Positions 19,746 to 64,000 of a stretch of 64,000 nucleotides of DNA are shown here, in pieces (position 1 is the first letter of the stretch; each line of letters opens with the position of its first letter). A program made the translations under genes and the position numbers. This DNA is from Heptranchias perlo (Eukaryota), in NCBI RefSeq assembly GCF_035084215.1, contig NW_027139559.1, positions 1,612,001 through 1,676,000 on the forward strand. The letters run 5' to 3'. A model generated the notes under the pieces. The model was given only the letters and a program-made list of their open reading frames with translations, did not search any database and was not told where the DNA came from.

Positions 19746-20245
19746 CGGTATAAATACCCCGAGTATCTGCAGAGAGAAGAGGGAAGTCACCAGTTTGGAC
19801 GTGAACCCTTCTCAAAACATGATTGGTCATATCATTAGATTATTTAAAGTGAACATTGTTTGTACGTCGATTGAAGATTCTGTGATTGGAAAGATTTTTT
19901 AAATGTTTCTCAATAAATATTTTACATTCAGTTGACTTGAAGTTTCAGATTTGAGTTGAAGTTCAAGCAATGTCCGGTTTAATTAACAGTTTATTTAACA
20001 CCTAGTGTTATGTTTCCATGATTTAATCCCACACCCGGATTCGTTTTACAATTTATTACTGAGCAGTTAGTTCTAGTTTTCATTGTAATTCCTGTCTCCA
20101 GCTGAAAGCCCGTTCACAATGAAAGTTATTCAATTCCATGATTGGAAGCAATAACAAGTCTGGAAATTTCACCCCAACTCAATCAAACCTCTGATTTCGC
20201 TCTCATCCTGCTCCTAATGTGTCTGTTTGTTTCTCTTCTTACCAG

Positions 20246-21141
20246 TTAACTTAGTGACGATCAAGATTCTGTGTCAAGGAACGTGCGGACTCTCCAAATG
20301 TGTCACTCGCTATCTGGTAGCCATGGCAGCGGCGGATCTACTGGTCGTTATCATCGATCTGATATTGAGGCAGATTCCGATTGCTCATCAAATAAGCATT
20401 GTGCGATCCATTCCCGTGTGTAATATTCACGCGGTCCTGCTGTACGCAGCCACAGACTGTTCTGTCTGGTTCACCGTTAGTTTCACCTTTGATCGATTTG
20501 TGGCCATTTGCTGCCAGAAACTGAAAACTAAATATTGCACCGAGAAAACGGCGGCTGTGATTCTCGGAACAGTGAGTGTGCTGTCCTGTTTAAAGAACAT
20601 TTTCTGGTACTTTATGTATCAACCTTGGTACACGATGTATAATAAACCCTGGTTTTGTTATGTGAGCGTCCGTGTTAAGACTTCAGGATTATGGACAGCA
20701 ATCGAACTCCTTCATTATATTCTCACCCCGTGTGTCCCGTTTGTTCTGATTCTGCTGCTCAATGCTTTCACCGTCAGACACATTTTAGTGGCCAGCAGAG
20801 CCCGCAGGAGACTCCGGGGACACGACAGTGGGGAGAGTCCCAGAGACCCAGAGATGGTGAGCCGAAGGAAATCCATCATTTTAATGTTTGTTATCTCGGG
20901 GAATTTCATCCTGTTATGGGCGATGTTTATGATGTGTTCTATAGCTCAGCGAACGTGGTATCTTGGTTATATGTCTTTAGAACCACCTCTTTTTGGACGA
21001 GAAATTGGATTCATGCTCCAACTCCTGAGTTGCTGCACAAACACTTGTATTTATGCAGTGACCCAGAGTAAATTCAGAGAGCAGTTGAAGAATGTGGTGA
21101 AATATCCCATTACTATAATTGTTAAATTCATTAAACGTTGA
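20246..21141 (+). CDS. GPR139/GPR142-like class A GPCR, coding exon 2 (spliced product ~326 aa)
   Basis: Acceptor accag|TTAAC gives ...GIP-VNLVTI; motifs YLVAMAAADLL, FTFDRFVAIC, CVPF, CTNTCIYAVTQSKFR; open frame. Confidence 0.92.
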
Positions 21142-38376: not shown

Positions 38377-38409
38377 ATGCAAATCAGCTCACGCTCTCGC
38401 GATTTATAA
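38377..38409 (+). promoter_or_regulatory. IgNAR promoter: octamer ATGCAAAT (38377-38384) and TATA-like TTTATAA (38403-38409)
   Basis: Perfect Ig octamer in heavy-chain orientation ~20 bp upstream of a TATA-like box and ~120 bp upstream of the leader ATG. Confidence 0.8.
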
Positions 38410-38503: not shown

Positions 38504-38546
38504 ATGAATATTTTCTGGGTTTCGGTCCTTTTAGCCTCGTTACCGA
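38504..38546 (+). CDS. IgNAR: IgNAR leader exon (MNIFWVSVLLASLP)
   Basis: Resembles the IgNAR signal peptide MNIFLLSVLLALLP; phase-1 donor A|GTAAGT at 38547. Confidence 0.95.
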
Positions 38547-38686: not shown

Positions 38687-38971
38687 ATGCCTTCGGTGGA
38701 AGAGTAGTCCAAACACCGACAACGGCAACGAAAGAGGCAGGCGAGTGGCTGACCATCAACTGCGTCTTAACTGATTCTGGCGCTGCTAAGTTTCATAGCG
38801 CAAGATGGTACCGGCAATATCCGGGTACAATAGACAAGGTAGACATATCCATTGGCGGACGATTTGTTGAATCGTTCAACTGGGGAGTAAAGTCTTCTCT
38901 GCGAATCAACGATCTGACAGTTGAAGACAGCGCCACTTATTACTGCAAAGCTTACTACGGACTTGGTGTAC
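38687..38971 (+). CDS. IgNAR: IgNAR V exon (VNAR), probably with a germline-fused D at its 3' end
   Basis: Acceptor ttcag|; encodes [95 protein letters not shown]. Short FR2/CDR2 region typical of VNAR; followed directly by an RSS. Confidence 0.96.
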
Positions 38972-39009
38972 CACAGTAATGAATCTTGGGTTCCCGTAAC
39001 ACATAAACT
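38972..39009 (+). other. RSS 3' of V (23-class, 22-bp spacer)
   Basis: CACAGTA + 22 nt + ACATAAACT. Confidence 0.9.
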
Positions 39010-39333
39010 GTACCCAAACCTCTTAATACAAAGTTAATACAGGTTATTCTCCAGGTGACTAAAAACTTCACGGTTAAATACTCACTGTCTCTGTCAAGCA
39101 TTGGCTGATATATTAAAAACTTTGTCTATTAATTTAGGTGATTGTTGTGTATATGTTATAATCATATTAATAATGGAACTTTGATATTTCTCCAGGATTG
39201 GGATAAGAGACTGAGAATTCTAAACATCTGCTGGGATCCCAATATAAGGCAATGATTTGAATTATATTTACTGCATCTTTCAATCAATATCTTGGACTAT
39301 CTGAAGGGATTTCTGTGACATTTGTAGCAATAG

Positions 39334-39409
39334 ATTTCTTGTGCTGATCTGAAACGATGTGTGGCTGCAGTGACACACTGACACAGTGACTCGGGCCACG
39401 GCACAAACC
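39334..39409 (+). other. IgNAR: IgNAR D segment (coding 39362-39381, TGGCTGCAGTGACACACTGA) flanked by 12/12 RSSs
   Basis: 5' RSS ATTTCTTGT-12nt-CGATGTG (degenerate); 3' RSS CACAGTG-12nt-GCACAAACC; sits between V and J at ~330 bp spacing each side. Confidence 0.85.
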
Positions 39410-39722
39410 TCTCCAACAGTTATTTGTTTTACTACTCGTGAAGATGACTGCTTAATGTGCTTTCTTCCTTATGGTTGTTACTTCATAAAGTTTGAAATCA
39501 ATTCCAATTCGATCTTTGGTGATAATCTAGCTGAATTCCATGATATTAAATCAAGGGATTATCTTTTTCAGTGCTACAGGAGTTCGCATTGCACATTGTA
39601 AATATCTGGTTCGACAGAAACTGACGGAAAATTAAGATAGGTTAATGACTTCAGTGTATTGGAAAGGTCATTGCAGCCGTGTTGTTTTGGTGTATTTATT
39701 ACCGCACCTTAATTTCAATGAC

Positions 39723-39761
39723 CCTTTTTGAAGGAGGCTGACTGGGAGCTGAAAGACTGTG
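39723..39761 (+). other. J 23-RSS
   Basis: CCTTTTTGA + 23 nt + GACTGTG immediately before the J coding sequence. Confidence 0.85.
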
Positions 39762-39818
39762 GCATTTACGGTTACTGTTCCTCTATTGGAACTGGCACCG
39801 TGCTGACTGTGAACTCTG
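39762..39818 (+). CDS. IgNAR: IgNAR J segment (IYGYCSSIGTGTVLTVNS)
   Basis: GxGT-VLTVN FR4 motif; phase-1 donor G|GTAAGT at 39819. Confidence 0.93.
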
Positions 39819-41449: not shown

Positions 41450-42600
41450 TCCATTAAATACACCCTGGTCAGGTACAATATGGGTTAGGTAGAAAAGAAG
41501 AATGTGTTTGCATTTACAAACGCATTTCCCATGACCTCGCGACGTTCCAAAGCGCTTTACAGCCAATGAATTTGTCGAGTAAATCCCCCTCTACACTGTG
41601 TCATACAACACTCCCAGTTCAGGAGCACTAGCGGTCAGATAGAGGGTACAGCTCCCGCTACACTGTCCCACCAAACACTCCCAATGCAAGTACAGCACAG
41701 GATAGATACAGGGTAAAGCTCGCTCGAGAATGTCCCGTCAAACACTCCCAGTTCAAGAGCAGTAGGGGTTAGACAGAGGATACAGCTTCCTCTACACTGT
41801 GTCATACAACACTCCCCGTTCAGGAGCAGTAGGGTTTAGATAGAGGGTACATCTCCCGCTACACTGTCCCACCAAACACTCCCAGTTCAGGAGCAGTAGG
41901 GTTTAGATAGAGGGTACAGCTGCATCTACACTATGTCATGCAACACTCCCATTTCAGGAGCACTAGGGGTTAGATAGAGGGTACAGCTCCCGCTGCACTG
42001 TCCCACCAAACACTCCCAGTGCAAGTACAGCACAGGATAGATACAGGGTAAAGCTCGCGGTACAATTTCCTGTCAAACAATCCCAGTTCAAGAACAGTAG
42101 GCGTTAGACAGACGGTACAGCTTCCTCTACACTGTGTCATGCAATAATCCCAGTGCAAGTACAGCACAGGATAGATACACAGTAAAGCTCCATCTACGCT
42201 GTTACAACAAACGGCCAGAGGGCAGGTACAGCACGGGGTTAGATACAGAATAAACGTCCATCTACACTGTCACATCAAACACTCCCACCGCAGGTACAGG
42301 GTTAGATATAGAGCAAAGCTCCCTCCACAATGTCTATCAAACACTCCCAGGTCAGGTACAACAAGGGTTAGATACAGAGTTACGCTCCCTCTCCGCTGTC
42401 CCATCAAACAATCCTAGAGCAGGTACAGCTCGGGTTAGATACAGAGGAAAGCTCCCTCTACACTGTCCCATCAAACACTCCCAGAGCAGGTACAGCACGG
42501 GTTCGATACAGAGTTGCGGTTCCTCGACAGTCTCCCATCAAACACTCCCAGGGCAGGTACAGCTCCGGTTAGATAGAGGGTAAAGCTGCTCTACACTCTA
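41450..42600. repeat. 67-bp minisatellite in the J-C1 intron
   Basis: Unit ACACTCCCAGGGCAGGTACAGCACGGGTTAGATACAGAGTAAAGCTCCCTCTACACTGTCCCATCAA. Confidence 0.9.
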
Positions 42601-43496
42601 TCCATTGGAGAAGGTAGATTGCCAACCTTACCGGATACAAGAGCAGATTACCTGAATGGCCCCTGACATGGAACCTGAGAAAATGTCCAGCATAAAGCTC
42701 CCAAAATGTGGCAGTCAGTAACATTAGAGAATACTGTCTTTGAACGGGAGCAACGAGATGCAGATTGTACTAGAAACACTGGTGAAGCGAAAAGTTTCAT
42801 CACAGACATAGAACACGGCACTTATCGAAAGGAAAAACCTTCTAAGAGCAGAAGAATGTGCGCGGGCAGAAACTCCGATTGGTTCCTTTACACGGATCCA
42901 TGCAAATTGTTCTCCCATGAATTCCCTCCGAAAACAATTGATACTCCCCAGTTTAAATAATCCTAAATCTTACAACTTTCTCTTCCGAAATCATAAGACC
43001 ATCCACTTAATCTGTACGTTCCACTAAACCAGATGTCAACTGGTTTATTAAAAACGGGTTAACCCCTCTCGTAGGATAGTCAAGCGTTAACCGTGGTTCC
43101 CTGAGACGGCCAACAGTGATTTTTAGGGTTAATTTCCTTCCTTGCCTCCTCTGAGCGAAAAAAAGCAATGAAGCAATAGTATTAATATCTCTGTCAATGG
43201 TATTCACTTTACCACTATCATTGGGAGATCTTTTGATATAATCACCCAATTTACACAAAGATTGCAAATTTAGTACTTGCATTCTGTCGCCGTTGTTCAG
43301 ATAAATAACTTGTTCACTTCCACCTCGTAGTTTCGTTAATTCATCTTACATGGTTTCAAAGATGTGTATCATTGCTTTAGTTTTGTAAAGCATCTGAAGT
43401 TGTCCTTTGAGATGTATCTCTTTCTCTCTGACTTATCCATTTTTTCAGCAGCCATTATTTTCCAGGCTCTTGTAGGAATCCAGCCCAACCCTGCCA

Positions 43497-44600
43497 ATCA
43501 TAGAATCATAGAATGATACAGCACAAAAGGAGGCCATTCGGCCCATCGGTCCTGTGCCGGATCTTTAAAGCTAGCCAATTAGTCCCACTCCCCTACTCTT
43601 TCCCTACAGAACTGCAAATGCTTTCACTGCAATTCATGATCGAATTCCCTTTTGAAAGTTATTATTGAATCTGCTTCTAACACCCTTTAAGGCAATGCAT
43701 TCCAGATCTTTGAAATTCTCTGCTTAAAAAAAATCTCCTCCTCTCGCCTCCAGTTGCTTTGCCAATGACCTTAAATCTGTGTCCGCTGGTTACCGATCCG
43801 CCTGCCACTGGAAACAGTGTTTCCTTATTTACCCTTTCGAAACCTTTCATGATTTTCAACACCTCGATTAAATATCCCCTTAACCTTCTCTGCTCTAATG
43901 AGAACAACCCGAGCTTCTCTAGTTTCTCCACGTAACTGAAATCCCGCATCCCTGGTACCTGGTAAATCTCCTTTGCACCCTCTCTAAAGCTTTGATATCC
44001 ATCTTAAAGTGTGGTGCCCAGAACTCGACACAATACTCCAGCTGGGGCCTAAGCAGTGATTTCTGAAGGTTTAACATAACTTCCTTGCTTTTGTACTCTA
44101 TGCCTCTATTAATAAAGCCCGGGATCCCGTATGCTTGTTTATCAACCTACTTAACTTCGCGTGCGACCTTCGAAGATTTGTGTGTATATACCCCGAGGTC
44201 TCTCTGTTCCTGCACCCCCGTTAATATTGTACCAGTTTGTGTATGTTGTCTCTCCTCATTCTTCCTACCAAAATGCATCACTTTCAACTCACTGCGCTAA
44301 ATTTCATTCGCCATGTGTTTGCCCATTTAATCAGTCCGTCTATGTCCTCCTAAAGTCTGTTAATATCCTCCACATTGATTACTACATTTCCGAGCTTCGT
44401 GTCATCTTCGTGTCATCCAGATCATTAATGTATATCACAAAGAGCAGTGCTCCGAATAACGACCCCTGGAGAACACCACTGTATACTTCCCTCCATTCTG
44501 AAAAACAACCGCTTACCGCTGCTCACTGCTTTCTGTCCCTTAGCCAATTTCGTATCTAGGCAGCCACTGCCCCTTTAATTCGATGGGCTTCAGTTGTGTT
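43497..44600 (-). mobile_element. CR1 3' fragment
   Basis: (ATCATAGA)n tail; LEKLGLFSLEQRRLRGYLIEV. Confidence 0.9.
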
Positions 44601-44899
44601 ATGCTATGTTCCTTGCACATTGAAAGTATATCTATTTGATTGTATATCTCACTATAAGACATTCAGAGCTAGAAACCTCTCTGGCCCGTTGCACTTATTG
44701 CGAATTTGGGTCGACGCTTCGGAATGATTCATCATCTATTCATTTTAGTCATTCGCAAATTTTGAGGAACACATTCCAGAATGGCTGGAGCCTGATTTTA
44801 ATAAATTAACCCCAGCCTTCTAATCTTCAAGTGAAAACAATGTGTTCTGTATCTCGCTATGCTTCTTTCCAACCAACGTGAAACGGCCCTCTCCCAGCC

Positions 44900-47800
44900 G
44901 TTGGTTTATCAGTCCATTGACATTTGGATTGAGGAATTTTGGAAATGTTATTGAGGAAGTTGTGGAGAAGATTTTTCGGAAGTTCCTTGGATAAGTATAA
45001 ATACTAAAGAGTAAAGTTAAAAATTGGAACCAACTAACCTAAGGATGGGATTAGATTAGAGATGTAAAAGGGAATCTTCTCCAGAAAGATGAATGAATCG
45101 CAGATGTTAGACAAGGACTTAGTCTCGGTTTCTACAGAAAAGTGTGTTCGTGGGAATGGAAGGGTAGAGCGGGAGGGTGAGGGGCAATTAGATTGAATAA
45201 CTAGAGATAAGTAAGGAGTGCTGAGAAGATTGTTGGAACTCATTCTATCCTCGAATGTTGAGAACAGACAAAAAGCAAATAGCAGATGCTCGGCCCACGA
45301 ACATTCAAACATCCTAGGATGTGGAATTTGTGCCAGAGGACCGAGGTAAAATCTTTATCAAAGAAGGGAGAAAGGTTTACAGAGGGTAAACGTGGGGCCT
45401 TCGGCTTACCGTCAGTGCTGGATCATCTTCTAGAGTCATATTACTGGAGAAAATTAACATTGACTTACAGAGACATTGTTTCATTAAAGACAGCTAGCAC
45501 GGATTTGTAGACGGCAAGTTCTCCCTGATAAATTTAGTTTGACAGGTCTTCGAAGAACTCTACTCATTTCCATGTTTAATTCTGGTCACTGCACCCCAGG
45601 AAAGTTAGATTGGCCTTGGAGTGGGTCGACCGCAGATTCACCAGAATAATACCGGGGCCAAAAGGGTTAAAATATGAGGCAAGATTGAATGGATCAGGAT
45701 TGTATTCCCTTGATTATAGAAGATTAATGGGTGATCTAATTAATGTGTTTAAGATGACAAAATCATTTAACAGGGTAGATAGAGAGAAACTATTGCCTTT
45801 GTTGGGGGAATGCAGAACAAGAAGGCATAACCTTAAAATTAATGCTATGTCGTGTCAGGTGGTTGAAACGATACCAAATAATGGGTTTGTTAATCAAGTA
45901 AAGTTGTTCATTTTCAATATTCGCAAAGGACTTTGCAGAGGAAGCACAACATTATATTATCAAGGAATATAAAAAAGGAACAGTAAAGTATTCTACAGAC
46001 ACATAAATAATCAAAGGACAGAGTTAGGGCCACAAAGGGAAGCACAAGATAAACTCGCAGGTAATGGGCAGCGAAATGGCAGAAATATTGAATAGTTACT
46101 TTGCCTCAGTATTTACCAGGGAGAATAATAAGGTGGGCAGAATATTAGAAGAAAAGATTTTTAAAAACATAAGACTTTTAAGATAGAAAATGGGGGAGAT
46201 AATTGATCAACTAAGCAAGCATGGAGAGGATCAAACCCCTGAACCGTATGGATTTCATCGGCTCATAATAAAAGAAGCTAGGGAGGAGACAGCAGAGGCA
46301 CCATTAGATATATCTAAAAATTCATTAGAAAGGGGAATAGTGCCAGAAGACTGGTGGACAGCTAATGTGAAAACTATATTTTAAAAAGGAGATCAGAACA
46401 AGTCCAGGGAATTATAGACCAGTTAGCCTAACGTCGGTGTTAGGAAAGATAATGGAATCTTTGCTCAAAGATGTAATAGAAAAACATCTAGAAAGCGAAA
46501 ATAAAATAAAGAATAGTCAGAAAGCAAAGCTATGCTTGACCAACCTTACTGAATGCTTTGACGAAGTAACAGGAAGGTTAGAAGGTTGGATTTTCAAAAG
46601 ACATTCGATAATGTAGCACATTGTAGATTCATGACTAATGTTAGAGCATGTGGAGTCAGGGGACAGGTAGCAGAATGGATAGCAAGCTGGCTACAAAATA
46701 GAACACAGAGAGATTGGTTCAAGGGTAGCTGCTCAGAATGGGAGAATTTGGGAAGTGGCTTTTCACAGGGATCAGTGCTCGGGCCACAGTTGCTGACAAT
46801 TTATATTAACAATTTGGACTGGGAATCGGGGTGTGTGGTTCATACAAACGTAGAATATGTCAGGTTGCAAGAAGACATTATTAAACTTGAAGAATGGGCG
46901 TGTCATTGGCAAATTAATTTCAATATATGTAAGTGTGAGGTGGTGCATTTTGTTTCGGAGAATAAGGAGGACACATACTGCTTGGATAATAAGAGTTAAC
47001 ATGGGGTAGAGGAGAAAAGGGATCTCGGGGTATAGCTATACAAATCAGTAAAAGAGGCGACGCATGTTAATAAGGCCATAAAAAGGCAAACAAAGCAATG
47101 ATTTTCATTTCTAGAGGAATAGAATTGAAAAGGAGTGACGTTTTGTTAAACTTGTATAGAATCTGGCTTTTACCACACTTGGAGTACAGTGCACAGTTGT
47201 GATTTCAATATTATAAAAAGATACAGAGGCATTGAAGAAGGTGTAAAAAAGATTCAAAAGGATGATACCAGAACTGAGAGAATATACCTGTCGGGAAAGA
47301 TTGAACAGGCTGGGGCTGTTTTTTTCTGGTAAAGAGAAGGTTCAGGGGTGACCTGATTGAGATATTTAAGATAATGAAAGGGTTTGATAGGGTAGACGTG
47401 GAGAAAATGTTTCCACTTGTGGGGGAGTCCAAAATTAGACATCATAAATATAAGGTATCCAGTGGGGAATTCAGGAGAAACTTCACTCCCCGATGAGTGG
47501 TAAGACTGTGGAATGCGCTAACATAAGGAGTATTTGAGGTAAATAGCATCGCTGCATTTAAAGGGAGACTAAATAAATACACGAGGGAGAAAGGAATAGA
47601 AGGATATGCTGATGGGGTGAGATGAAGTGGGGAGGGAGGAGGCTCATGTGGAGCATAAATTCCGACATAGACATGTTGGGCTGAATGGCCTGTTTCTCTG
47701 CTGTATTCTCGATATAACTGGATGATTTGAGCAACCTCAGACAGTTTAGTTGATTGGGCAGGTCGATACCAGATAACACGCAACATGGAGAATATAAAGT

Positions 47801-48110
47801 GATAAATTTGGAGAGGAAGAATGTAAGAAAATATTCACTAAATTGCAACACTTTCAAAGTAGAAGAAGAACAGAGAGACATAGAGCTTCAGATTGATAGA
47901 TCTTTAAATGTAGGAGGCTGTGTCAGCAAGGTTAGAGAGTAATAAAGCAAGGACATAACATTAGATTTAAAAATCATTTGCTTAGGCCAAAGTTGAAGAT
48001 TGTGTCCAGTTTCGGTGCCTTAATTTACGTAGGATGTCAAGGCCACGGAGAGGGGGCAGAAGAGATTCACCACGATTATGCAAAGGATGAGAGGCGTTAA
48101 CTATGAGAAG
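44900..48110 (+). mobile_element. Several nested, decayed CR1 fragments
   Basis: PEDWWTANV, NYRPVSLTSV, DFQKTFDNV, QGSVLGP. Confidence 0.85.
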
Positions 48111-48765: not shown

Positions 48766-49853
48766 AGATCATCAGCCAAAGATGAATGGAGATATTAGTA
48801 GATTTATTTTTATTATGGAGATGGCTGTTAGGACACAGAACCTCCTACCAAAAACAAAAAAACAATGCTGTTTGCAGAATCATAGTATCATTGGAGGTAC
48901 AGCACAGGCCGGAGGCCATTCGGACCATTGTGCCTCTGCTCGCTCTTTGAAAGAGCTACCCAATTAGTCCCACTCACCTGCTCTTTCCCCATAGCCCTGT
49001 AAATTAGTTTTAAATAGGAAGTAGGCAAATATTTGAGAAACAAGGTATCGGGAAAGAAGAGGCGAATGGAACTGCGCACATCCAGCCCCTGATTATAGGT
49101 CCCTTCAGGTGAATAGATATAAAATCACAAGCCAAGCCAGGAATGTACAATTTCCCCATGTACACTCCCGCCGTGCGGCCTGGGCGGGCCCAGCGGAGTT
49201 TCTACTGCTAAGCGGATAGCTCTGACACAGAGCCCGCAGTGTCGCGATGGGCCGAAAGAATCCTTCTGTGCTGTAAAATATTTTAATTCTATCGCTCCTT
49301 CACCTAACATTACCAAAACCATTGCTGTCTCTGACCTCTGATGTTACAAACTCGTTGCTGCAATCGTCTAGAAATCCAAACAACTCCTTCCTTAAGAAAC
49401 GCCTATTGCAAAATATTTCCCGGTAAAGTGACGACATGAAATTGCTCCATCCCCAGGAAAATTAAAGCATGTTACTGGTAACAATAATCGATGTACATTT
49501 AATATCTGACTGTCACTACACACCACTGCACAGTATCGATATTTTTTCGCATAGCACATTGATCATTATTCACTCCGAAATTAACAAGTGATAAGAACAT
49601 TATTTGAATGTTCGTTCATGACCGGAACTCATTTATCCCAACACGCCCACTGTAATATCAGCACATTTAAACCCAGCTTCAATGCATCCATGTGTGTTAA
49701 ATTTGGCGGTGTCCGTGGCTGCGAGCAACGTGATATTGACTAGATAATCTGTTTTCGGTGTTGGTTGGGGAATAAGTATTGACCAGGACTCGATATAAAC
49801 GGTTTAATTGTCATTATAGAAGCGAGTAAGACTTTCTTTTTTAATTTTCTCAG

Positions 49854-50171
49854 TAAAACGTACTCCACCGATCATCAGTCTCCTCTACTCTGCAAGTGAC
49901 GAACTGACAGCAAAAGGTTTTGTGCATCTGGTTTGCCTCATCAGCGAATATCAGCCAGAAAGCATTGCAGTGAGCTGGCAGAAGAACGGAAACGCTGTAA
50001 AATCGGGCTTTACAACCACATCCCCAGTTAAAAATTTGAATGGAGATTTCAGCTCCAGGAGCATCCTTAAAGTCACCCTGCAGGAATGGAACAGCGGGTC
50101 TCTTTACAGCTGCCAAGTGTCCCATTCTGCAACCAACAGTAACCAGCGGAAAGACATTAGAAAAACATCAG
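49854..50171 (+). CDS. IgNAR: IgNAR C1 exon
   Basis: 318 nt, phase 1/1, AG/GT; VKRTPPIISLLYSAS...VHLVCLISEYQPESIAVSWQKN...YSCQVSHSATNSNQRKDIRKTS matches IgNAR C1. Confidence 0.96.
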
Positions 50172-50917
50172 GTGAGAAAATGCAACCAATTCACAAGCTT
50201 GCACAGGTGAAACATGTTGACTTTCTTTCTCAGTATTGGATTAGTTGGGATGTTATTGTGATAATTTATCTGTGCCAGTTTATGGTGCAGTGAGACAGTA
50301 AAGATCATTGGGGATGTTTCAGCAGCAATGGCTGAGGTTCCTGAAGGTGCTCGCTGCCGGGCGGATGTTGCAAAAGGCATGACTATGAGATCTTGACAAA
50401 TACATGAATATTATTCTATGGTCAGGGTAACACATTGATCAGCTCTTTCATGATATTACAAGCAATTTACAAATAATTGTGATACATACTATTTAATTAA
50501 TTCACCAGATCAATCCAGGTGAAACAGAAAGGAAACAGAACAGAAATGTATGTTTTACACACAAGGGATCAAACTTTAACAATGCGGTTCTGTTACTTTT
50601 TACATTTGTGAGGATTTATTGTGTGTGATACTGGGTATCAGTACAAAAATGTGTTTAAAAAAATGAAACGGGTGAGAGACGGACGGAGATAGAAACGAGA
50701 AAGGCAGAGAGAGAGATGGACAGAGAGGGGGTGCTGTATAAAGATTGAACCTACAGATACGGACACAAAACCAACAATGAGCTGTTCTTCCTTTCAAAGA
50801 TTTTGTTTAAACGATACGGGTAAGGGCCGGGGAATACGACTAAGTGGATAGCACATTCAGAGAGCCAGCAGACACGATGAACCGAATGGCCTTCTGAGCT
50901 GTCGAATTCATTCAATC

Positions 50918-51348: not shown

Positions 51349-51559
51349 AGCTTCGTTGAGTTGTACATAGTTTTGATTCGACTCAACATACGCGCAAACA
51401 CCAAATTATTTTTAAAAATTCAATAATAATCAGTGAGAGACATATTCACATCATACCGTGTTATGGATTATCAATGAAATTGAAATCCTTGATAAATTTC
51501 CGAAACCATCAACACTAAATCATCGCCCCGATTCTGAATCTCTCGTTTCTCACTGACAG

Positions 51560-51862
51560 AGCTCACGGTATTTCTCAGAGATCCTTCCGTTGTCGAAGTT
51601 TGGATCAATAAAACTGCCACCCTGGTGTGTGAAGTGGTCTCTCCGGTTCCCACTGAGGTTACCATCTCTTGGACAGTGGGTGGAAAGATAAGGAATGAAG
51701 GAGTTCAAATTGAACCAGCTAAAAAGGATGGAAACCAGTACCTGACAATCAGCCACTTGACCAGCAGCGTGGCAGAGTGGGATAGCGGGGTTGAATACTC
51801 GTGTTCGGCACAACAGGATCAATCATCTCCTCCGGTATTAAAACGAATCGGAAAGATAAGAG
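51560..51862 (+). CDS. IgNAR: IgNAR C2 exon
   Basis: 303 nt; ELTVFLRDPSVVEVWINKTATLVCEV...NEGVQIEP...GNQYLTISHLTSSVAEWDSGVEYSCSAQQDQSS. Confidence 0.96.
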
Positions 51863-51938
51863 GTGGGTAAAATATCTATAGACATGTTTTCGGATAGCAA
51901 TGGATGGAACACTAACACTTATTGAACTTCCGTTACAG

Positions 51939-52256
51939 TCGAGCCAGTCAAGCCAAAGCTCCGCCTCCTTCCTCCATCACCAGAGGAGAGTCAAAGTAGG
52001 AGCGCCCCGACTCTCACATGTCTGATAACAGGATTCTACCCTGACAACATAATCGTTTCCTGGGAGAAGGACGGAGCTGCTTTAAGCACGAACGTTACCA
52101 GTTTCCCCAGTGCTCTTGAACAGGACCTAACCTTCAGCACAAGGAGCAACCTCATTTTGCCTTCAGAGGAATGGAAGAAAGGATCAAGATACACCTGTAT
52201 CGCCTCACATCCCCCTTCACAATCCGACGTGAAGGCGACCATCCGCAATCTGAAAG
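51939..52256 (+). CDS. IgNAR: IgNAR C3 exon
   Basis: 318 nt after a 76-bp intron; VEPVKPKLRLLPPSPEE...LTCLITGFYPD...ALEQDLTFSTRS...YTCIASHPPSQS. Confidence 0.96.
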
Positions 52257-54869
52257 GTACGGACCGTTTTTCAAAATACATTTACACAATCAGTGATTTT
52301 TACTTAAATCTCAGACCAAACTCGTACCACACACGCACTTGTGATCGGATCCCCATAGGTTACAGGTATAGCAAAATATATGGATATCAATGAATGCGCC
52401 TTTAATTCACAGACAGCAATTGGACGATAAAATGATCAGCACTCTGAATGTGTTCGCCGCCACAAGCTATGTGAGGACCCAATGGTAAGAAGGGGCACGT
52501 TAAGGATCTCTTCAAACTCACTGCACGGTACCCTGGTGATTGTGGGCTTTCTTTAAACAGGAATATGCAGTAGCTAAAGACACTAAATCCACTTATCACC
52601 AGGCAGAGTGTTCCATACTATGTGGGGAGAAGACTTTGAGTGGCGTTTACTTCACTCTGCACTGCCTGGTTTAGGTTTAGCTGGACACTGAGTGGTTGCC
52701 AGCAGCGAATTTAAAGACAAAAAAGCAGATAGTACTCAGGGGACGCAACCAATTGATGTGAGGAACTTTGTACATTTCATGTTTTCAAAGCTTCTGAACC
52801 GCCAGCGCTAAACGTCAGAGGAGACAGAAACGTGTCAATTGACTGAACTCAATGATGTGACCTTCTGTTTCAATGAGTGTAAACTCCGCTCGTGTGATGA
52901 GTTTGTTTAATCTCTAATTGTTTTTTTCGATCAAATTGAAGAGTTTGCACAATAACCGGCCCAGCACCACCGTGCTAGGCGTGGGGAATCGTTCAAACCT
53001 CTGTAGATCTTAGGTTGGTTCCCCGATTACTGCTGAGTTCGTTGATCTCACCTGGTGGCGTTCGGGACCTTATAATCGAGCTTAGTGGCCCGCGATTCGT
53101 GAGGTGGCAATAGCGCATTGTTCTGCTCCTGGTCTCTGGTAAGTGCGTGTATGGTCATTCTGGGAACAACAAGATAGGAGTTGCCTGCGATGCCCTGACG
53201 ATGCAATAGCCTACTGATACTGCGTATGAGCACTCGCGAAGTATCGACCCCTGAGAATTGGATGAGGTACCGGACGTCGACCTATAGTTCACATACACTA
53301 GTGAGGAAAAGAGAGGATATAATAGCAAACCCGGCAATTAGACTCAAACTCGAGCTCCTCCGATTGGTAAGCTCCTGTACACTAGAATGGCCCTGTACAG
53401 TAAGAAGGTGCTGTGTTTCACCCCCGGATCTTCACTGAGTTAACTGATCTCAACTGGTATCTTTTTTGGAAGTTCCGGTGGACTACGCACATCCGGGTTA
53501 CTGTGGAGAAACCCGTTCTTGTCTCTTACTCGGTTCGGGGGAGACCTTGTTGAAGTCGGGGTGTTTACACCTCTGCTGAGGGCAGGATTGGACGGGGCTT
53601 TGCTGCTTTCACTGTAGAGTAGGCTGTTGATGCGCAGTCTTTCTGCTGATTCACGAAGAATGGCCACTTGAGAGATACTCAAGGCGACCTTCTCCAGTGA
53701 AGCTTGTACCGGAGTAGCAATAAAAACAGACATTTATATATCATCTTTAAGCGCCTCATACCATTTCACAGAGTTGTAAGGAAAACATAACCAAGTTAAA
53801 TAAGGGAAGATTATGAGGCGTGACCAAAAATCTTGCTGGGTTTGAAGGAGGGTCTTAAAGTGGGAGCAGGAGGGGGAGAGGCGGGGAGGATTAGGTCGGA
53901 AAGTCCAGCGCGAGACCTGGGATCTAATCAAGGTATCACCACCTTCCTTATGAATGAAAAAGTGTTGTCCGTTTTGTTATTTCTTGTCCTATTCCCGGAT
54001 CAGTGGAGTTCCACAGAATGATCAGCGGACTGAAGTTCATCCAACACCGACATGGTTTATTTCAGCCACTCAGTGAATGAGAGTCAAAGTAAAAGATCAT
54101 CGTTACAGCTACAAACGCCACACTTGTTGCTGCTATAAGAGCTTCCTTACGTTTTCACTCAATCTTTGGCTCCCTCAGATATCAAGGTTAAGTCCCTGAA
54201 TTATCCCTTTTGGTTATCGCTCGCTTCTGACTACTCCAAAAACGGTCTTTTTTTGATAAATTTGAAAATGTCAGTTGACTTTTCAGTGGATTATTCCATG
54301 AAAGCAGCAGCGGATCGACGCTAGAATCTTGTAGAGAAGTACAAATAATTACCATCCTGGAAAGCCGGCTCCATTAACCGAGAGTACAAAGGCCATTTTC
54401 CAGCGGTTGCCCAATTTATTATTAAATCTTCGATCATTCGTACTCTGCACAGACCCAGAAAGTTGATATTTCATATGTCCCCTGAATATCCAAGTGCATT
54501 TAGGTTTCTACTCAAATAGTGGCGGCATAAAGCCTAATGTGGACTTCCCAGAACAATGGTTTGTACAAATGTCACTCCATTTTCACTGGGATTGTTAGAC
54601 GATCATTAATAATATCCTGTAAAACGTACAGCAGAATTTTCCTCCAGTTCTGCTGCTCTGTAAACTGTTACATGATTCTCCCTGTTTGGGTTTGGTTCTA
54701 ATTTTCCAATGTGGCATCGTATTGCCCTCAGGTAGAAGCCATGCATTAACAGACTTTTAAAATACCAGGAGGCGTCTGGGATGCTTCCTTACTTCGTTCG
54801 TTGGGAATCCAGGAATATATCCCAATTAGTACAGTTAAAATTAAAACTAAACCGAGTATGTTGTAAATC

Positions 54870-56685: not shown

Positions 56686-57006
56686 AAGTATGTCATGGGA
56701 CAGACATTTCTGTCACCATACTGAACCCTTCTTTTGAAGAGATCTGGACCAAACGAACAGCGACCATTGTTTGTGAAGTCGTTTATAGCGATTTAGAAAA
56801 CGTCAGCGTGTCCTGGCAAGTGGATGGGAGTCGGAGAACGGAAGGAGTGGAGACTCAGGCTCCTGAGTGGAATGGAAGTAAATCCACAATCGTTAGTAAA
56901 CTGAAAGTCACCACGACAGAGTGGGGCAGTGGGGTTGAATATTTGTGCTTTGTGGAAGACGGTGAATTGCCAACACCAGTGAAAATCTCCACCAGAAAAG
57001 TAAAGG
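56686..57006 (+). CDS. IgNAR: IgNAR C4 exon
   Basis: 321 nt; EVCHGTDISVTILNPSFEEIWTKRTATIVCEVVYSDLEN...PEWNGSKSTIVSKLKV...YLCFVEDGELPTPVK; keeps the N-terminal linker Cys. Confidence 0.96.
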
Positions 57007-57084
57007 GTAAGCACAGATAATATTCGTTCAGAGACTGACCCTACTCCATCAATGGTCGTTAAAGATCATTCATTTTCTACAATA

Positions 57085-58134: not shown

Positions 58135-58508
58135 TTGACGGAATGTATCCTCCGAAAGTCTACGTCCTGCCTCCATCAGCGGTCGAGATTGAAACTGAGA
58201 AGACGGCAACCCTGGTGTGTTTAGCAACCGGCTTTTACCCTGCCGAGATTTACGTCGCGTGGTTGGCCAATGACACCCTTTTGGATTCAGGTTACACCAC
58301 CCAACCGGACACGGAGAAGGAAAGTGGTTCCAGCTCCATTGTCAGCAGACTGAGAGTCACCGCAGCGGAGTGGAACAGCGGGACCACTTACTCCTGTTTA
58401 GTGGGACACCCGTCTCTCACAATGAATTTACACAGAAGTATAAATAAATCTTACGGTAAACCTATTTTAGTTAATTTTCCATTTATTCTAGCCGACAGTT
58501 TTCAATAG
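58135..58508 (+). CDS. IgNAR: IgNAR C5 exon plus secretory tailpiece (internal donor for the membrane form after 58455)
   Basis: VDGMYPPKVYVLPPS...LVCLATGFYPAEIYVAWLANDTLLD...YSCLVGHPSL...SINKSY-GKPILVNFPFILADSFQ*; G|GTAAA internal donor. Confidence 0.96.
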
Positions 58509-61790: not shown

Positions 61791-63271
61791 GATACATCAC
61801 TGTGCTGCGTATCTCACTCCGCAAATGACACATCCTTGATTCACTGGCCTCGACTTATGCCCAGCTGCACCTAGTTAGTGAGCAAATTGATGTGCTGCCC
61901 TTCTCACGGTGCCAATCTGTGAATCCCACAATACGGCATCAGATAATGCTAATGAAGTGCATTCGAAATCGGATAGCTCACCGGAGATTGAACTTTCGCT
62001 TTCACATTTTAAACAGAAAGGACTTGCTTTGGAGTCGGTTTTACGCCCTAGCGTGTTGCTATTTAGATCACGTAGCATGTCAGTTCACTGTGGAAGAACA
62101 CTCGTAGAGTGAAATCTATGATTTGTAAATAACCATACAAATTTGTGACAATATGACAAAGTTTACTCTGCGCCAGGTCAGTCACTACTGCGATTATGAT
62201 GCTTTGAGTTTCAGAATCCAATCGCCTACACTCAATACAAATACAATGCCCCACCAACGCCCCACCCACCCCCCACCCCTCCCCCCCCCCGCCCCAAAAT
62301 CTCGGCCAGGATTATCATAGCCCGACAGTCTACATGACCGGAGATTTGTCAGTGGTGACACATTCCGAAGTTTAAGGGAATTGTTAACTTAATTTTCAAT
62401 TCTGGCTCTCATGGCCAAAACGTTAGGGATAAAGCTTCATATCGTGTTTTTATTACAGAGTATTAGTGGCACCATACTGGAATATACGCTGCGGTGTGTT
62501 ATAGATTCCACGAGATAATAATAATAGAGAAAACAAAAAATTGTACAAGAAATATATCAGGTCAGGAATACGAAACCTAAAAGTATGTCAGCGTCATCAC
62601 CGTGAATCACAACTAAATCTAATGACAGTGATGCAGGTCTAACGACACTGTGTAGATGACAATGTGAAATAGTTTATATATAGTCCTATTTCCGAACGCG
62701 TCTGTATTTGCAAGTAACCTGTTATATAAAATGTCAGTAGGTGACGACCGTCGAATATAAGTGCGCTGATCAGACATAGTTGAATCTTTAGCCCGAAGTG
62801 TTTCCCTGTCCCCGCTTTACTGGCGATCTCTTATGTCAGTTTATGTGAGCCGCAAGAAATTTGGTCCTATAATCAGATCAACTTCTGTTCAGAATGGTAT
62901 CGAGTTTCATTCTTTTACACAGAACTTCATTAATTTTATTGTTATCCGCTGCCAAAACAGAAAGTAAAGCTGTTTTATTCGCTGAAACGTAAAAAGGACG
63001 GATATTTGTTTGCTGTATAAAATCAATTTCCTGTTCTGTATACAATATCTGAACTCTACTATCACTATAGGAGTAGCCCCATTGTTCTGAAAGTCACTGT
63101 AATCGATATCGGGCTGGTTAATATGTTAGCTATATTTTTATATTCCGTCAGTGCAAATTCAAATACACCATGTCCCTCGGGACTGCCGGTTTCATTTTAT
63201 TGCAGCGCCTTTGTATCTATTCTGTTCTCAACATGAACACCTTTCTAACAATATCAATCTATTGGTTCTAG

Positions 63272-63429
63272 AAACCCCTCAAGTAAAGGACGATCCAGAA
63301 GACCCCGAGGTAGAGGAAGAAGGATTAGAAAACTTATATGAGGATGGCAGCACGGCATCAACAGTGATCGCTTTCGTGATTCTGTTTATTCTCAGTATGC
63401 TGTACAGTACATTTGTAACCGTACTTAAG
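63272..63429 (+). CDS. IgNAR: IgNAR transmembrane exon TM1
   Basis: Acidic spacer ETPQVKDDPEDPEVEEEGLENLYEDGS then TASTVIAFVILFILSMLYSTFVTVLK with the antigen-receptor CART motif; acceptor ttctag|, donor AAG|GTAAT. TM2 not identified. Confidence 0.93.
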
Positions 63430-64000
63430 GTAATATCATCTTTCAATAGCGCAGTGACATTGAGTAAATTCATTAGAAAGCTGAGTTAATACCTTAGATA
63501 TAACCTGGGTACAAATGATGAACAAAATATTCTAATACAAGCATAATGAGCATAACATTTTTAGATTGGACTCCATTACTCGTTCCTATGTGATTAACTG
63601 GCACATTTAATAAACCTCCTGAATATGATAACACCAGAGGAACGCAAGTATACGACAATTATTGGGACATATAAGCAGAATAATAAACCAATAATGGGAA
63701 GTATTACTTTGCATCTCGATTGTGGAAAGTTGGAAGCACACTAAAAGGGAAAGAGATTATCGAATGATTCCGAGTGATAATCCAGAAATAGTTAGCAATA
63801 TGGTGATAAAGAAGCATCATGGGAATAGTGAGCGTGACGTATTTGAAGTCACCATCAAGTTTGCGAGGGAGAAAGGAGATCAGCAAACAAAGGTTTAGCA
63901 CTTAAACCTGGCTCACTGTGAAGATATGAGGAAAGCATTGACGGAGGAAGAATGGGATAAAATTTCAGTCGGTAAAACGATGGACAAATATTGCAATTGA

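Follow-up and report, generated by a model that had tools for sequence, protein, structure and literature searches.

The feature at 38504–63430 (+) of the window (the whole 64,000-nucleotide stretch of Heptranchias perlo DNA analysed) is a complete shark IgNAR cluster with all exons open. V, D1 and D2 are joined in the germline, and D3 and J are separate with intact signals. With moderate confidence, we read it as a half-germline-fused cluster that B cells would likely complete by two joins. The CDR3 of the resulting VNAR would begin with a fixed KAYYGLGV, and a disulfide between a D3 Cys and a J Cys would likely often close the loop. The amplified germline V-D1-D2 fusion, the coordinated cysteine changes and the altered secretory tail are a firmer result than the disulfide idea.

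Layout of the cluster and the V-D1-D2 joint

The V is short, has no CDR2 strands and carries the WYR tryptophan and two canonical Cys. Its top PDB matches were VNARs (best E 4.9e-27), and it was 58–65% identical to IgNAR proteins. No close relative of V was found in the protein databases (4 and 4 distant matches, 39–65% identity). This VNAR-type V is followed by fused remnants of D1 and D2, a separate D3 and a J with 12/23-compatible RSS, five C exons, an altered secretory tail and a TM exon (Table 1). The octamer is taken here to be an Ig promoter element. Heptamers and nonamers of all four remaining RSS were identical to those of sister cluster L011. The C exons were 95–99% identical to those of the type II sisters. 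The extra Cys of C4 has a counterpart at the C3/C4 border of the basking-shark protein P0005 and is likely an inter-chain Cys.

Table 1. Features of the IgNAR cluster, in positions of the window (an asterisk denotes a stop)
Feature	Position	Strand	Remarks
Octamer ATGCAAAT	38377..38384	+	5' of leader
Leader exon MNIFWVSVLLASLP	38504..38546	+	GT donor; splice 38546>38687 GT..AG in runs X5, X6
V exon including fused D1 and D2	38687–38971	+	Cys only at 38761–63 and 38944–46
VNAR V coding part	38687..38952	+	CDR1 +1 codon, FR3 -1 codon (Phe), no CDR1 Cys
D1 remnant, germline-fused to V	38953..38959	+	6/7 bases as in sister D1 start; encodes YY
D2, germline-fused to D1	38960..38971	+	12/13 D2 bases; encodes GLGV
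D2 3' RSS, 22-bp spacer	38972..39009	+	Now serves fused V-D1-D2; heptamer and nonamer as in sisters
D3 5' RSS, 12-bp spacer	39334..39361	-	Heptamer and nonamer as in sisters
D3, 20 bp (12 bp in sisters)	39362..39381	+	Cys codon 39366–68, frame GCSDTL
D3 3' RSS, 12-bp spacer	39382..39409	+	
J RSS, 23-bp spacer	39723..39761	-	
J IYGYCSSIGTGTVLTVNS	39762..39818	+	GT donor; sister J plus two codons; Cys codon 39776–78
C1 exon	49853..50172	+	Open; Cys are the two canonical only
C2 exon	51559..51864	+	Open
C3 exon	51940..52257	+	Open
C4 exon	56688..57008	+	Open; extra Cys at residue 2
C5 exon	58137..58454	+	Open
Secretory tail GKPILVNFPFILADSFQ*	58455..58508	+	Without N-glycan sequon and penultimate Cys
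Transmembrane exon 1	63270..63430	+	Open; 0–1.2% divergence from other clusters

The preliminary description had taken the locus for an ordinary V with one D. This did not survive alignment with the sister clusters, which shows V directly followed here by the 5' end of D1, D2, D2's own 3' RSS and the D2–D3 intron. The single free D is accordingly D3, which leaves two somatic joins. V stops six bases early at the joint, which is in frame, contains no N bases and reads KA-YY-GLGV. About 530 bp are absent, namely the V RSS, the D1 RSSs, the D2 5' RSS and the introns between them. The chance of the 6/7 match to the D1 coding end was ~0.001.

A search of the shark's own genome gave five near-identical V-D-J copies and six related V segments. 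Five of the latter belong to clusters with the usual V-D1-D2-D3-J layout, and the sixth is part of a complete join. In this one individual, the coding joint was identical in 5/5 fusion copies, with no RSS remnant, and the flanks of the copies differed by up to several percent. Four copies lie on one contig at 1.65, 3.07, 5.80 and 6.79 Mb; the remaining copy matches one of them at 99.9% identity and may be a haplotype of it. A contig from a DNA run crossed the joint at a depth of 47.6, compared with 52–70 for other cluster-specific contigs; the run is from the same sample as the assembly and thus not independent, and the depth is no copy number. Germline joints in shark light chains are described with little TdT activity in the accessible text of PMC2193156. 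Given this and the lack of N bases, the V-D1-D2 fusion would stem from RAG activity in germ cells without TdT.

Three side observations concern other loci. At ~20218–21140 (+), the window has an open frame of 307 codons whose translation resembles a seven-transmembrane receptor. The automated basking-shark model P0005 joins a similar domain to IgNAR, which suggests that such receptor-like genes are interspersed with IgNAR clusters in this shark and at least one other. A sister IgNAR cluster (L014, G000:C1392:2458380) has a stop at the V tryptophan region and is likely a pseudogene. Five spaced matches to the C5 exon (72%; L046–L050, contigs C1391 and C1269) possibly belong to IgW clusters.

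Cysteines of D3 and J

The cysteine inventory of the preliminary description agreed with the sequence. V has the two canonical Cys only, D3 reads WLQ*HT, GCSDTL or AAVTH* between two 12-bp-spacer RSS, and J codes IYGYCSSIGTG behind a 23-bp-spacer RSS and ends at a GT donor. The J Cys lies four residues before GxG. Two details had to be narrowed. GCSDTL is the only open D frame in the germline, but the stop of AAVTH* is its last codon and one-base trimming opens the frame; after trimming, it made up 30–38% of productive simulated joins. Ile was said to stand at the usual Tyr/Cys position before GxG. Tyr or Cys is indeed found there in the database VNARs P0001–P0004 and P0006, but the sister J segments and the basking-shark P0005 have Asp, which Ile therefore most likely replaced. 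Besides D3 and J, no spare Cys was present in the leader, V, C1–C3 or C5. C1 was considered as a source of a partner Cys and rejected, as it has none beyond the two canonical ones.

The Cys-bearing 5' end of J occurred five times in the 3.25-Gb assembly, with 0 mismatches each, and was confined to this fused V-D1-D2 cluster type; a control pattern gave 0 occurrences. Hence, the Cys-bearing J is not a chance feature. Copying of the J Cys from an NAR-TCR J was considered and rejected: the two are unlike in their flanks, and outside the five copies nothing in the genome comes close to the J 5' end.

The sister clusters have another layout. A CDR1 Cys (type II pattern) was found in five of the six sister V segments, the 12-bp sister D3 encodes CWC in its second frame, and the sister J reads YY(Q/Y)YYDGAGT with no Cys. 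The CDR1 of this cluster, DSGAAKFHS, has neither Cys nor Trp. The outgroup, basking-shark P0005, combines a CDR1 Cys with a YYYDGAGT J. Of 22 differences between V and sister B1, 13 were derived in this lineage, 2 in the sister and 7 were ambiguous with the basking-shark V as outgroup; the polarity is based on one predicted basking-shark protein and database VNARs. The outgroup and sister states, together with the 13 versus 2 derived differences, indicate three departures of this lineage from the type II-like sister state: the CDR1 Cys disappeared, D3 was remodelled from CWC to GCS and J acquired its Cys. J gained two codons along with the Cys. The D3 Cys moved by one codon with its frame unchanged. 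The ancestor would have been a type II cluster with the D3 Cys bonded to the CDR1 Cys, and the disulfide partner of the D3 Cys would have been swapped from CDR1 to J.

The remodelling of D3 includes an 8-bp tandem copy of the D3 end and the heptamer start (39371–78 duplicates 39379–86, 7/8 bases). This duplication shifted the stop of frame 1 deeper and closed the Cys-free frame 3 with a terminal stop, and would favour the Cys frame. In the sister D3, frame 3 is open and Cys-free and was used in one of three sister joins that could be read by eye.

Among the other clusters, L012/L026 (contig C402) has a sister V with Tyr in place of the CDR1 Cys and an unchanged Cys-coding D3. It is 99% identical to the cluster at C1392:5.54 Mb and perhaps its allele.

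Joining was simulated with geometric trimming, random added bases, no P bases and no selection, and all parameters were assumed. At mean trimming of 1, 2, 3, 4 and 6 bases, the even-Cys share of productive joins was 0.73, 0.61, 0.50, 0.40 and 0.28. With the sister D3 placed between the identical V and J, it was 0.26, 0.28, 0.26, 0.23 and 0.18. Part of the gain arises because the frame-3 stop becomes a Cys codon after one-base trimming. Simulated retention was ~90–100% for the J Cys and ~20–65% for the D3 Cys; odd-Cys joins (27–65% of productive joins) mostly had the J Cys alone. The sister clusters reached their needed single CDR3 Cys in 26–35% of simulated joins. A blunt D3–J join gives C-X9-C. 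The Cys of this cluster tolerate trimming of up to 4 bases in D3 and 14 in J; for comparison, the 5' trimming of D3 in the three sister joins readable by eye was 0, 3–4 and 4 bases, and that of J was 2, 3 and 17 bases. The simulated even-Cys shares and the tolerated trimming both argue that the D3/J layout favours a Cys pair.

Cys parity is not strict in this genome, as one of the three readable sister joins had no CDR3 Cys and sister B2 combines a D3 Cys with Tyr at CDR1. VNARs with a single unpaired CDR3 Cys are described as binding antigen in the accessible text of PMC9146136. Odd-Cys products of the present cluster would be either removed or tolerated by B-cell selection.

The genome also contains six NAR-TCR-like units. 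In three of them, J is lengthened and encodes two Cys spaced as C-X9-C, and in the other three it is Cys-free; no Cys was found in the free D segments (0/5). The long J (L030, L032 and L034, contig C240) carry 14 additional bases beside the heptamer and count as one case, since they probably share one origin. Their second Cys falls in the same alignment column as the J Cys of the IgNAR cluster, and by analogy their C-X9-C points to intra-loop pairing of a Cys in this place. The V of L034 contains a stop. In a further unit (L035, G000:C240:1164600-1167860), V runs straight into a D 3' RSS with a 12-bp spacer, a probable germline V-D join.

An intra-CDR3 disulfide between the D3 Cys and the J Cys is the most likely reading of these data, at somewhat better than even confidence. 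D3 holds the only germline partner Cys in the leader, V, D, J and C1–C3, the D3 changes raise the even-Cys share, and NAR-TCR J segments carry C-X9-C. The loop had been called pre-programmed; with the odd-Cys share given above, it would be a bias and not a fixed programme.

Secretory tail, constraint and alternative readings

The sister tail, GKPTLVNVSLVLTDSFQSCT*, has an N-glycan sequon and a penultimate Cys, and both are gone in this cluster. The tail has 8 base changes, all non-synonymous or nonsense, including a premature stop, and its divergence was 12.5%, compared with an intron rate of ~10%. Sequon and terminal Cys were missing in three of the four copies with a tail (window, L036 and L038). 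Copy L044 (C1392:5.80 Mb) has a normal tail and a sister-type 3' half, and all six sister tails found were normal. The tail Cys is described as critical for IgNAR multimers in the accessible text of PMC8692893. As it is gone, chains secreted from these copies would likely remain simple dimers, unless the lineage is losing its secreted form altogether. In the altered-tail copies, the secreted form would not be able to polymerise via the tailpiece Cys.

The C exons were open in four of the five copies, including the window. The exception, a leader-V-D-J copy (L070–L072, G000:C1392:6781883-6811882), is followed by neither C nor TM exons over the next 26 kb. The copy at 5.80 Mb (L061–L063, G000:C1392:5792340-5822339) is a mosaic, with the 5' half of the fused family through C3 and sister-type sequence from the C3–C4 intron on, and looks like a product of recombination between clusters. 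In the J–C1 intron of the window (42000–48000), divergence from the sisters was ~10% and no alignment to the own-family copies was obtained, a further sign of exchange between clusters.

Spliced leader-V contigs with 1–2 differences from the window were found in two of the four presumed-RNA runs (X5 and X6, one sample). They are compatible with sterile or rearranged transcripts and with any copy, and the RNA status of the runs is a guess. For the V-D-D end, D3 and J (38928–39812), three presumed-RNA runs gave no contig of this cluster; such contigs drop rare variants. All readable V-to-J joints in these runs were of sister type, and the sister clusters do rearrange, as seen from L013 and these joints.

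V had no stop in 5/5 copies, despite 14–16% divergence from the sisters, and the frame is undisturbed by the two indels in V, the one in J or the joint itself. V dN/dS against the sisters was ~0.5–0.7, faster than in the constant exons; positive selection on V was not shown by this value, and relaxed constraint also fits. A hypermutation-like footprint in V was considered and rejected, because the ~10% intron divergence from the sisters runs across the whole cluster and not around V alone.

Two alternatives concern what the locus is. That the V-D-D join arose by somatic rearrangement in a B cell or by misassembly, and was not inherited, is very improbable. The assembly does contain a probably somatic join: L013 (1767–1860 of the 36-kb contig C572) is an in-frame, fully joined type II VDJ that has N bases. 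It shows 98% similarity to the sister clusters at 0.80 and 7.44 Mb and is probably a somatic B-cell allele. The fusion, however, lacks N bases, recurs as one joint in five copies whose flanks differ and is spanned by the DNA-run contig at the depth given above. The chance that the cluster is an NAR-TCR V-D-J unit with one D, its J Cys bonded to a supporting TCR-delta V, is close to nil. The V(22)-(12)D(12)-(23)J order does resemble the NAR-TCR units on contig C240, but the five IgNAR C exons and the TM exon downstream refute this reading. NAR-TCR V are marked by an a-b loop Cys, the lack of the WYRK tryptophan and a supporting V-delta in the accessible text of PMC1845163; here, the tryptophan is kept, the a-b loop Cys is absent and no supporting V-delta lies downstream. 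Moreover, V is 40–43% identical to the C240 V segments, compared with 74–76% to the IgNAR sisters.

The other alternatives accept the cluster and differ on its cysteines. It is unlikely, though of these alternatives the less so, that the cluster is relaxed or decaying, perhaps still transcribed, with an incidental Cys layout and no selected D3–J bond. V is more diverged from the sisters than the introns are, its dN/dS is below 1, an otherwise conserved FR3 Phe was deleted, the tail changed at a neutral rate up to a premature stop and one copy is truncated, all of which fit such decay. It would not readily give coding indels and a fusion that are all in frame, five V copies without a stop, a pair of copies (A1 and A5) that differ at 3 synonymous and 0 replacement sites, unchanged RSS heptamers and nonamers, intact TM and C exons, or four separate Cys-related changes that leave exactly one Cys each in D3 and J. 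We regard it as rather improbable that the J Cys acts for the most part without its D3 counterpart, either free or linking the two V domains of the homodimer. By IMGT convention, the J Cys would sit at the base of CDR3, on the side of the domain that a light chain covers in ordinary antibodies, so it could link V domains. The higher simulated retention of the J Cys, the adjacent change from Asp to Ile and the gain of several hydrophobic residues in V point the same way. What this leaves unexplained is that D3 re-created a Cys after the loss of both ancestral ones, that the Cys-free frame was closed and that the NAR-TCR J carry their Cys as a C-X9-C pair. We keep to the D3-Cys/J-Cys reading. 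A wider version of it, in which the cluster is an amplified, half-hard-wired, innate-like IgNAR subclass whose Cys moved from CDR1 to J under selection, with D3 and J clamping the tip, is tentative and on balance doubtful. This version further holds that the tail change makes the product monomer-only or mainly membrane-bound and that the NAR-TCR C-X9-C arose independently.

Comparison with known VNAR types and joined clusters

VNAR types are defined by their Cys pattern, and the germline origin of these patterns is rarely traced stepwise. As parent-like and derived clusters share one genome here, the order of changes can be read directly: germline joining, loss of the CDR1 Cys, remodelling of D3, a new J Cys and an altered tail. 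A sharp prediction is an even-Cys excess in the CDR3s of this cluster. VNARs that fit no classical type are given as ~30% in nurse shark and 18.8% in bamboo shark in the accessible text of PMC6312525 and PMC8692893, and the cluster offers a germline source for some of them. What drives IgNAR multimers is stated as an open question in the parts available of PMC4279169 and PMC8692893; the cluster copies offer a natural pair to test this, with almost the same V region but the tailpiece Cys present in one and absent from the other. A disulfide-tied CDR3 with a free CDR1 is also a possible new scaffold.

Partial germline joining and D-Cys/J-Cys bonds are each known in IgNAR; their combination was not found in print. 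In the text of the literature searched, neither a V-D1-D2-fused IgNAR nor a J-encoded Cys inside a VNAR CDR3 was found. The bamboo shark comparison is by text alone, and the cluster map there may bear on novelty. Nurse shark type III IgNAR has a fused D1-D2 and is neonatal (PMC4622739), and the bamboo shark clusters IgNAR2, 5 and 6 have pre-joined D segments (three clusters, PMC8692893), both as far as the accessible text goes. The present cluster shares with these a partly germline-joined state, fewer somatic joins and a restricted CDR3. It differs from nurse shark type III in that the fusion takes in V together with D1 and D2, so that two joins remain and not three, and in having no CDR1 Cys or Trp, a Cys in J and an altered tail. 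VD- and VDD-joined shark heavy-chain clusters are described in the parts available of PMC2193156, PMC4279169 and PMC5192425. Like these IgM clusters, including IgM1gj, the present one points to RAG-like activity in the germline, at a low level of TdT, as the source of the joins (PMC2193156, PMC4279169); it differs from them in isotype, and the IgM chains pair with light chains.

VNAR type definitions are given, among other sources, in the accessible text of PMC12907318. Like types IV and IIb, the cluster has a V with canonical Cys only. Those types, however, have no non-canonical Cys in the finished domain, and here germline D3 and J supply Cys, with the J Cys kept in ~90–100% of simulated joins. 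With the type II sisters, the cluster shares the same D2, the same RSS and a homologous D3 with a Cys in the equal frame; unlike them, it has lost the CDR1 Cys, shifted the D3 Cys by one codon and added a J Cys. The CDR1 DSGAAKFHS lacks the Cys of types II and III and the Trp of type III. Type V of the horn shark has two CDR1 Cys and two CDR3 Cys (PMC6576789), and the topeshark clone H3-5 has two CDR3 Cys (PMC10672104). Two Cys in CDR3 are the common feature, here as predicted from germline segments; the present cluster has no CDR1 Cys, unlike type V, and type V and H3-5 are expressed clones for which the accessible text shows no germline basis.

Type I VNARs of the nurse shark (for example P0006) resemble the cluster in the source of their Cys, which are a D Cys and a J-encoded Cys. 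The D-encoded CDR3 Cys is bonded to a framework 4 Cys in the accessible text of PMC6312525 and PMC4622739, and an intra-CDR3 bond sometimes occurs (PMC6260137, in the part available). The present cluster differs from type I in having no FR2 Cys, one extra predicted bond instead of two, and a J Cys inside CDR3, three residues further upstream, with Ile directly before GxG. The layout had been placed outside the usual VNAR types. This stands insofar as each of types I–V, and NAR-TCR as well, has a defining feature that the cluster does not share; it is less far outside them than had been claimed, since type I already joins a D-encoded Cys to a J-encoded FR4 Cys.
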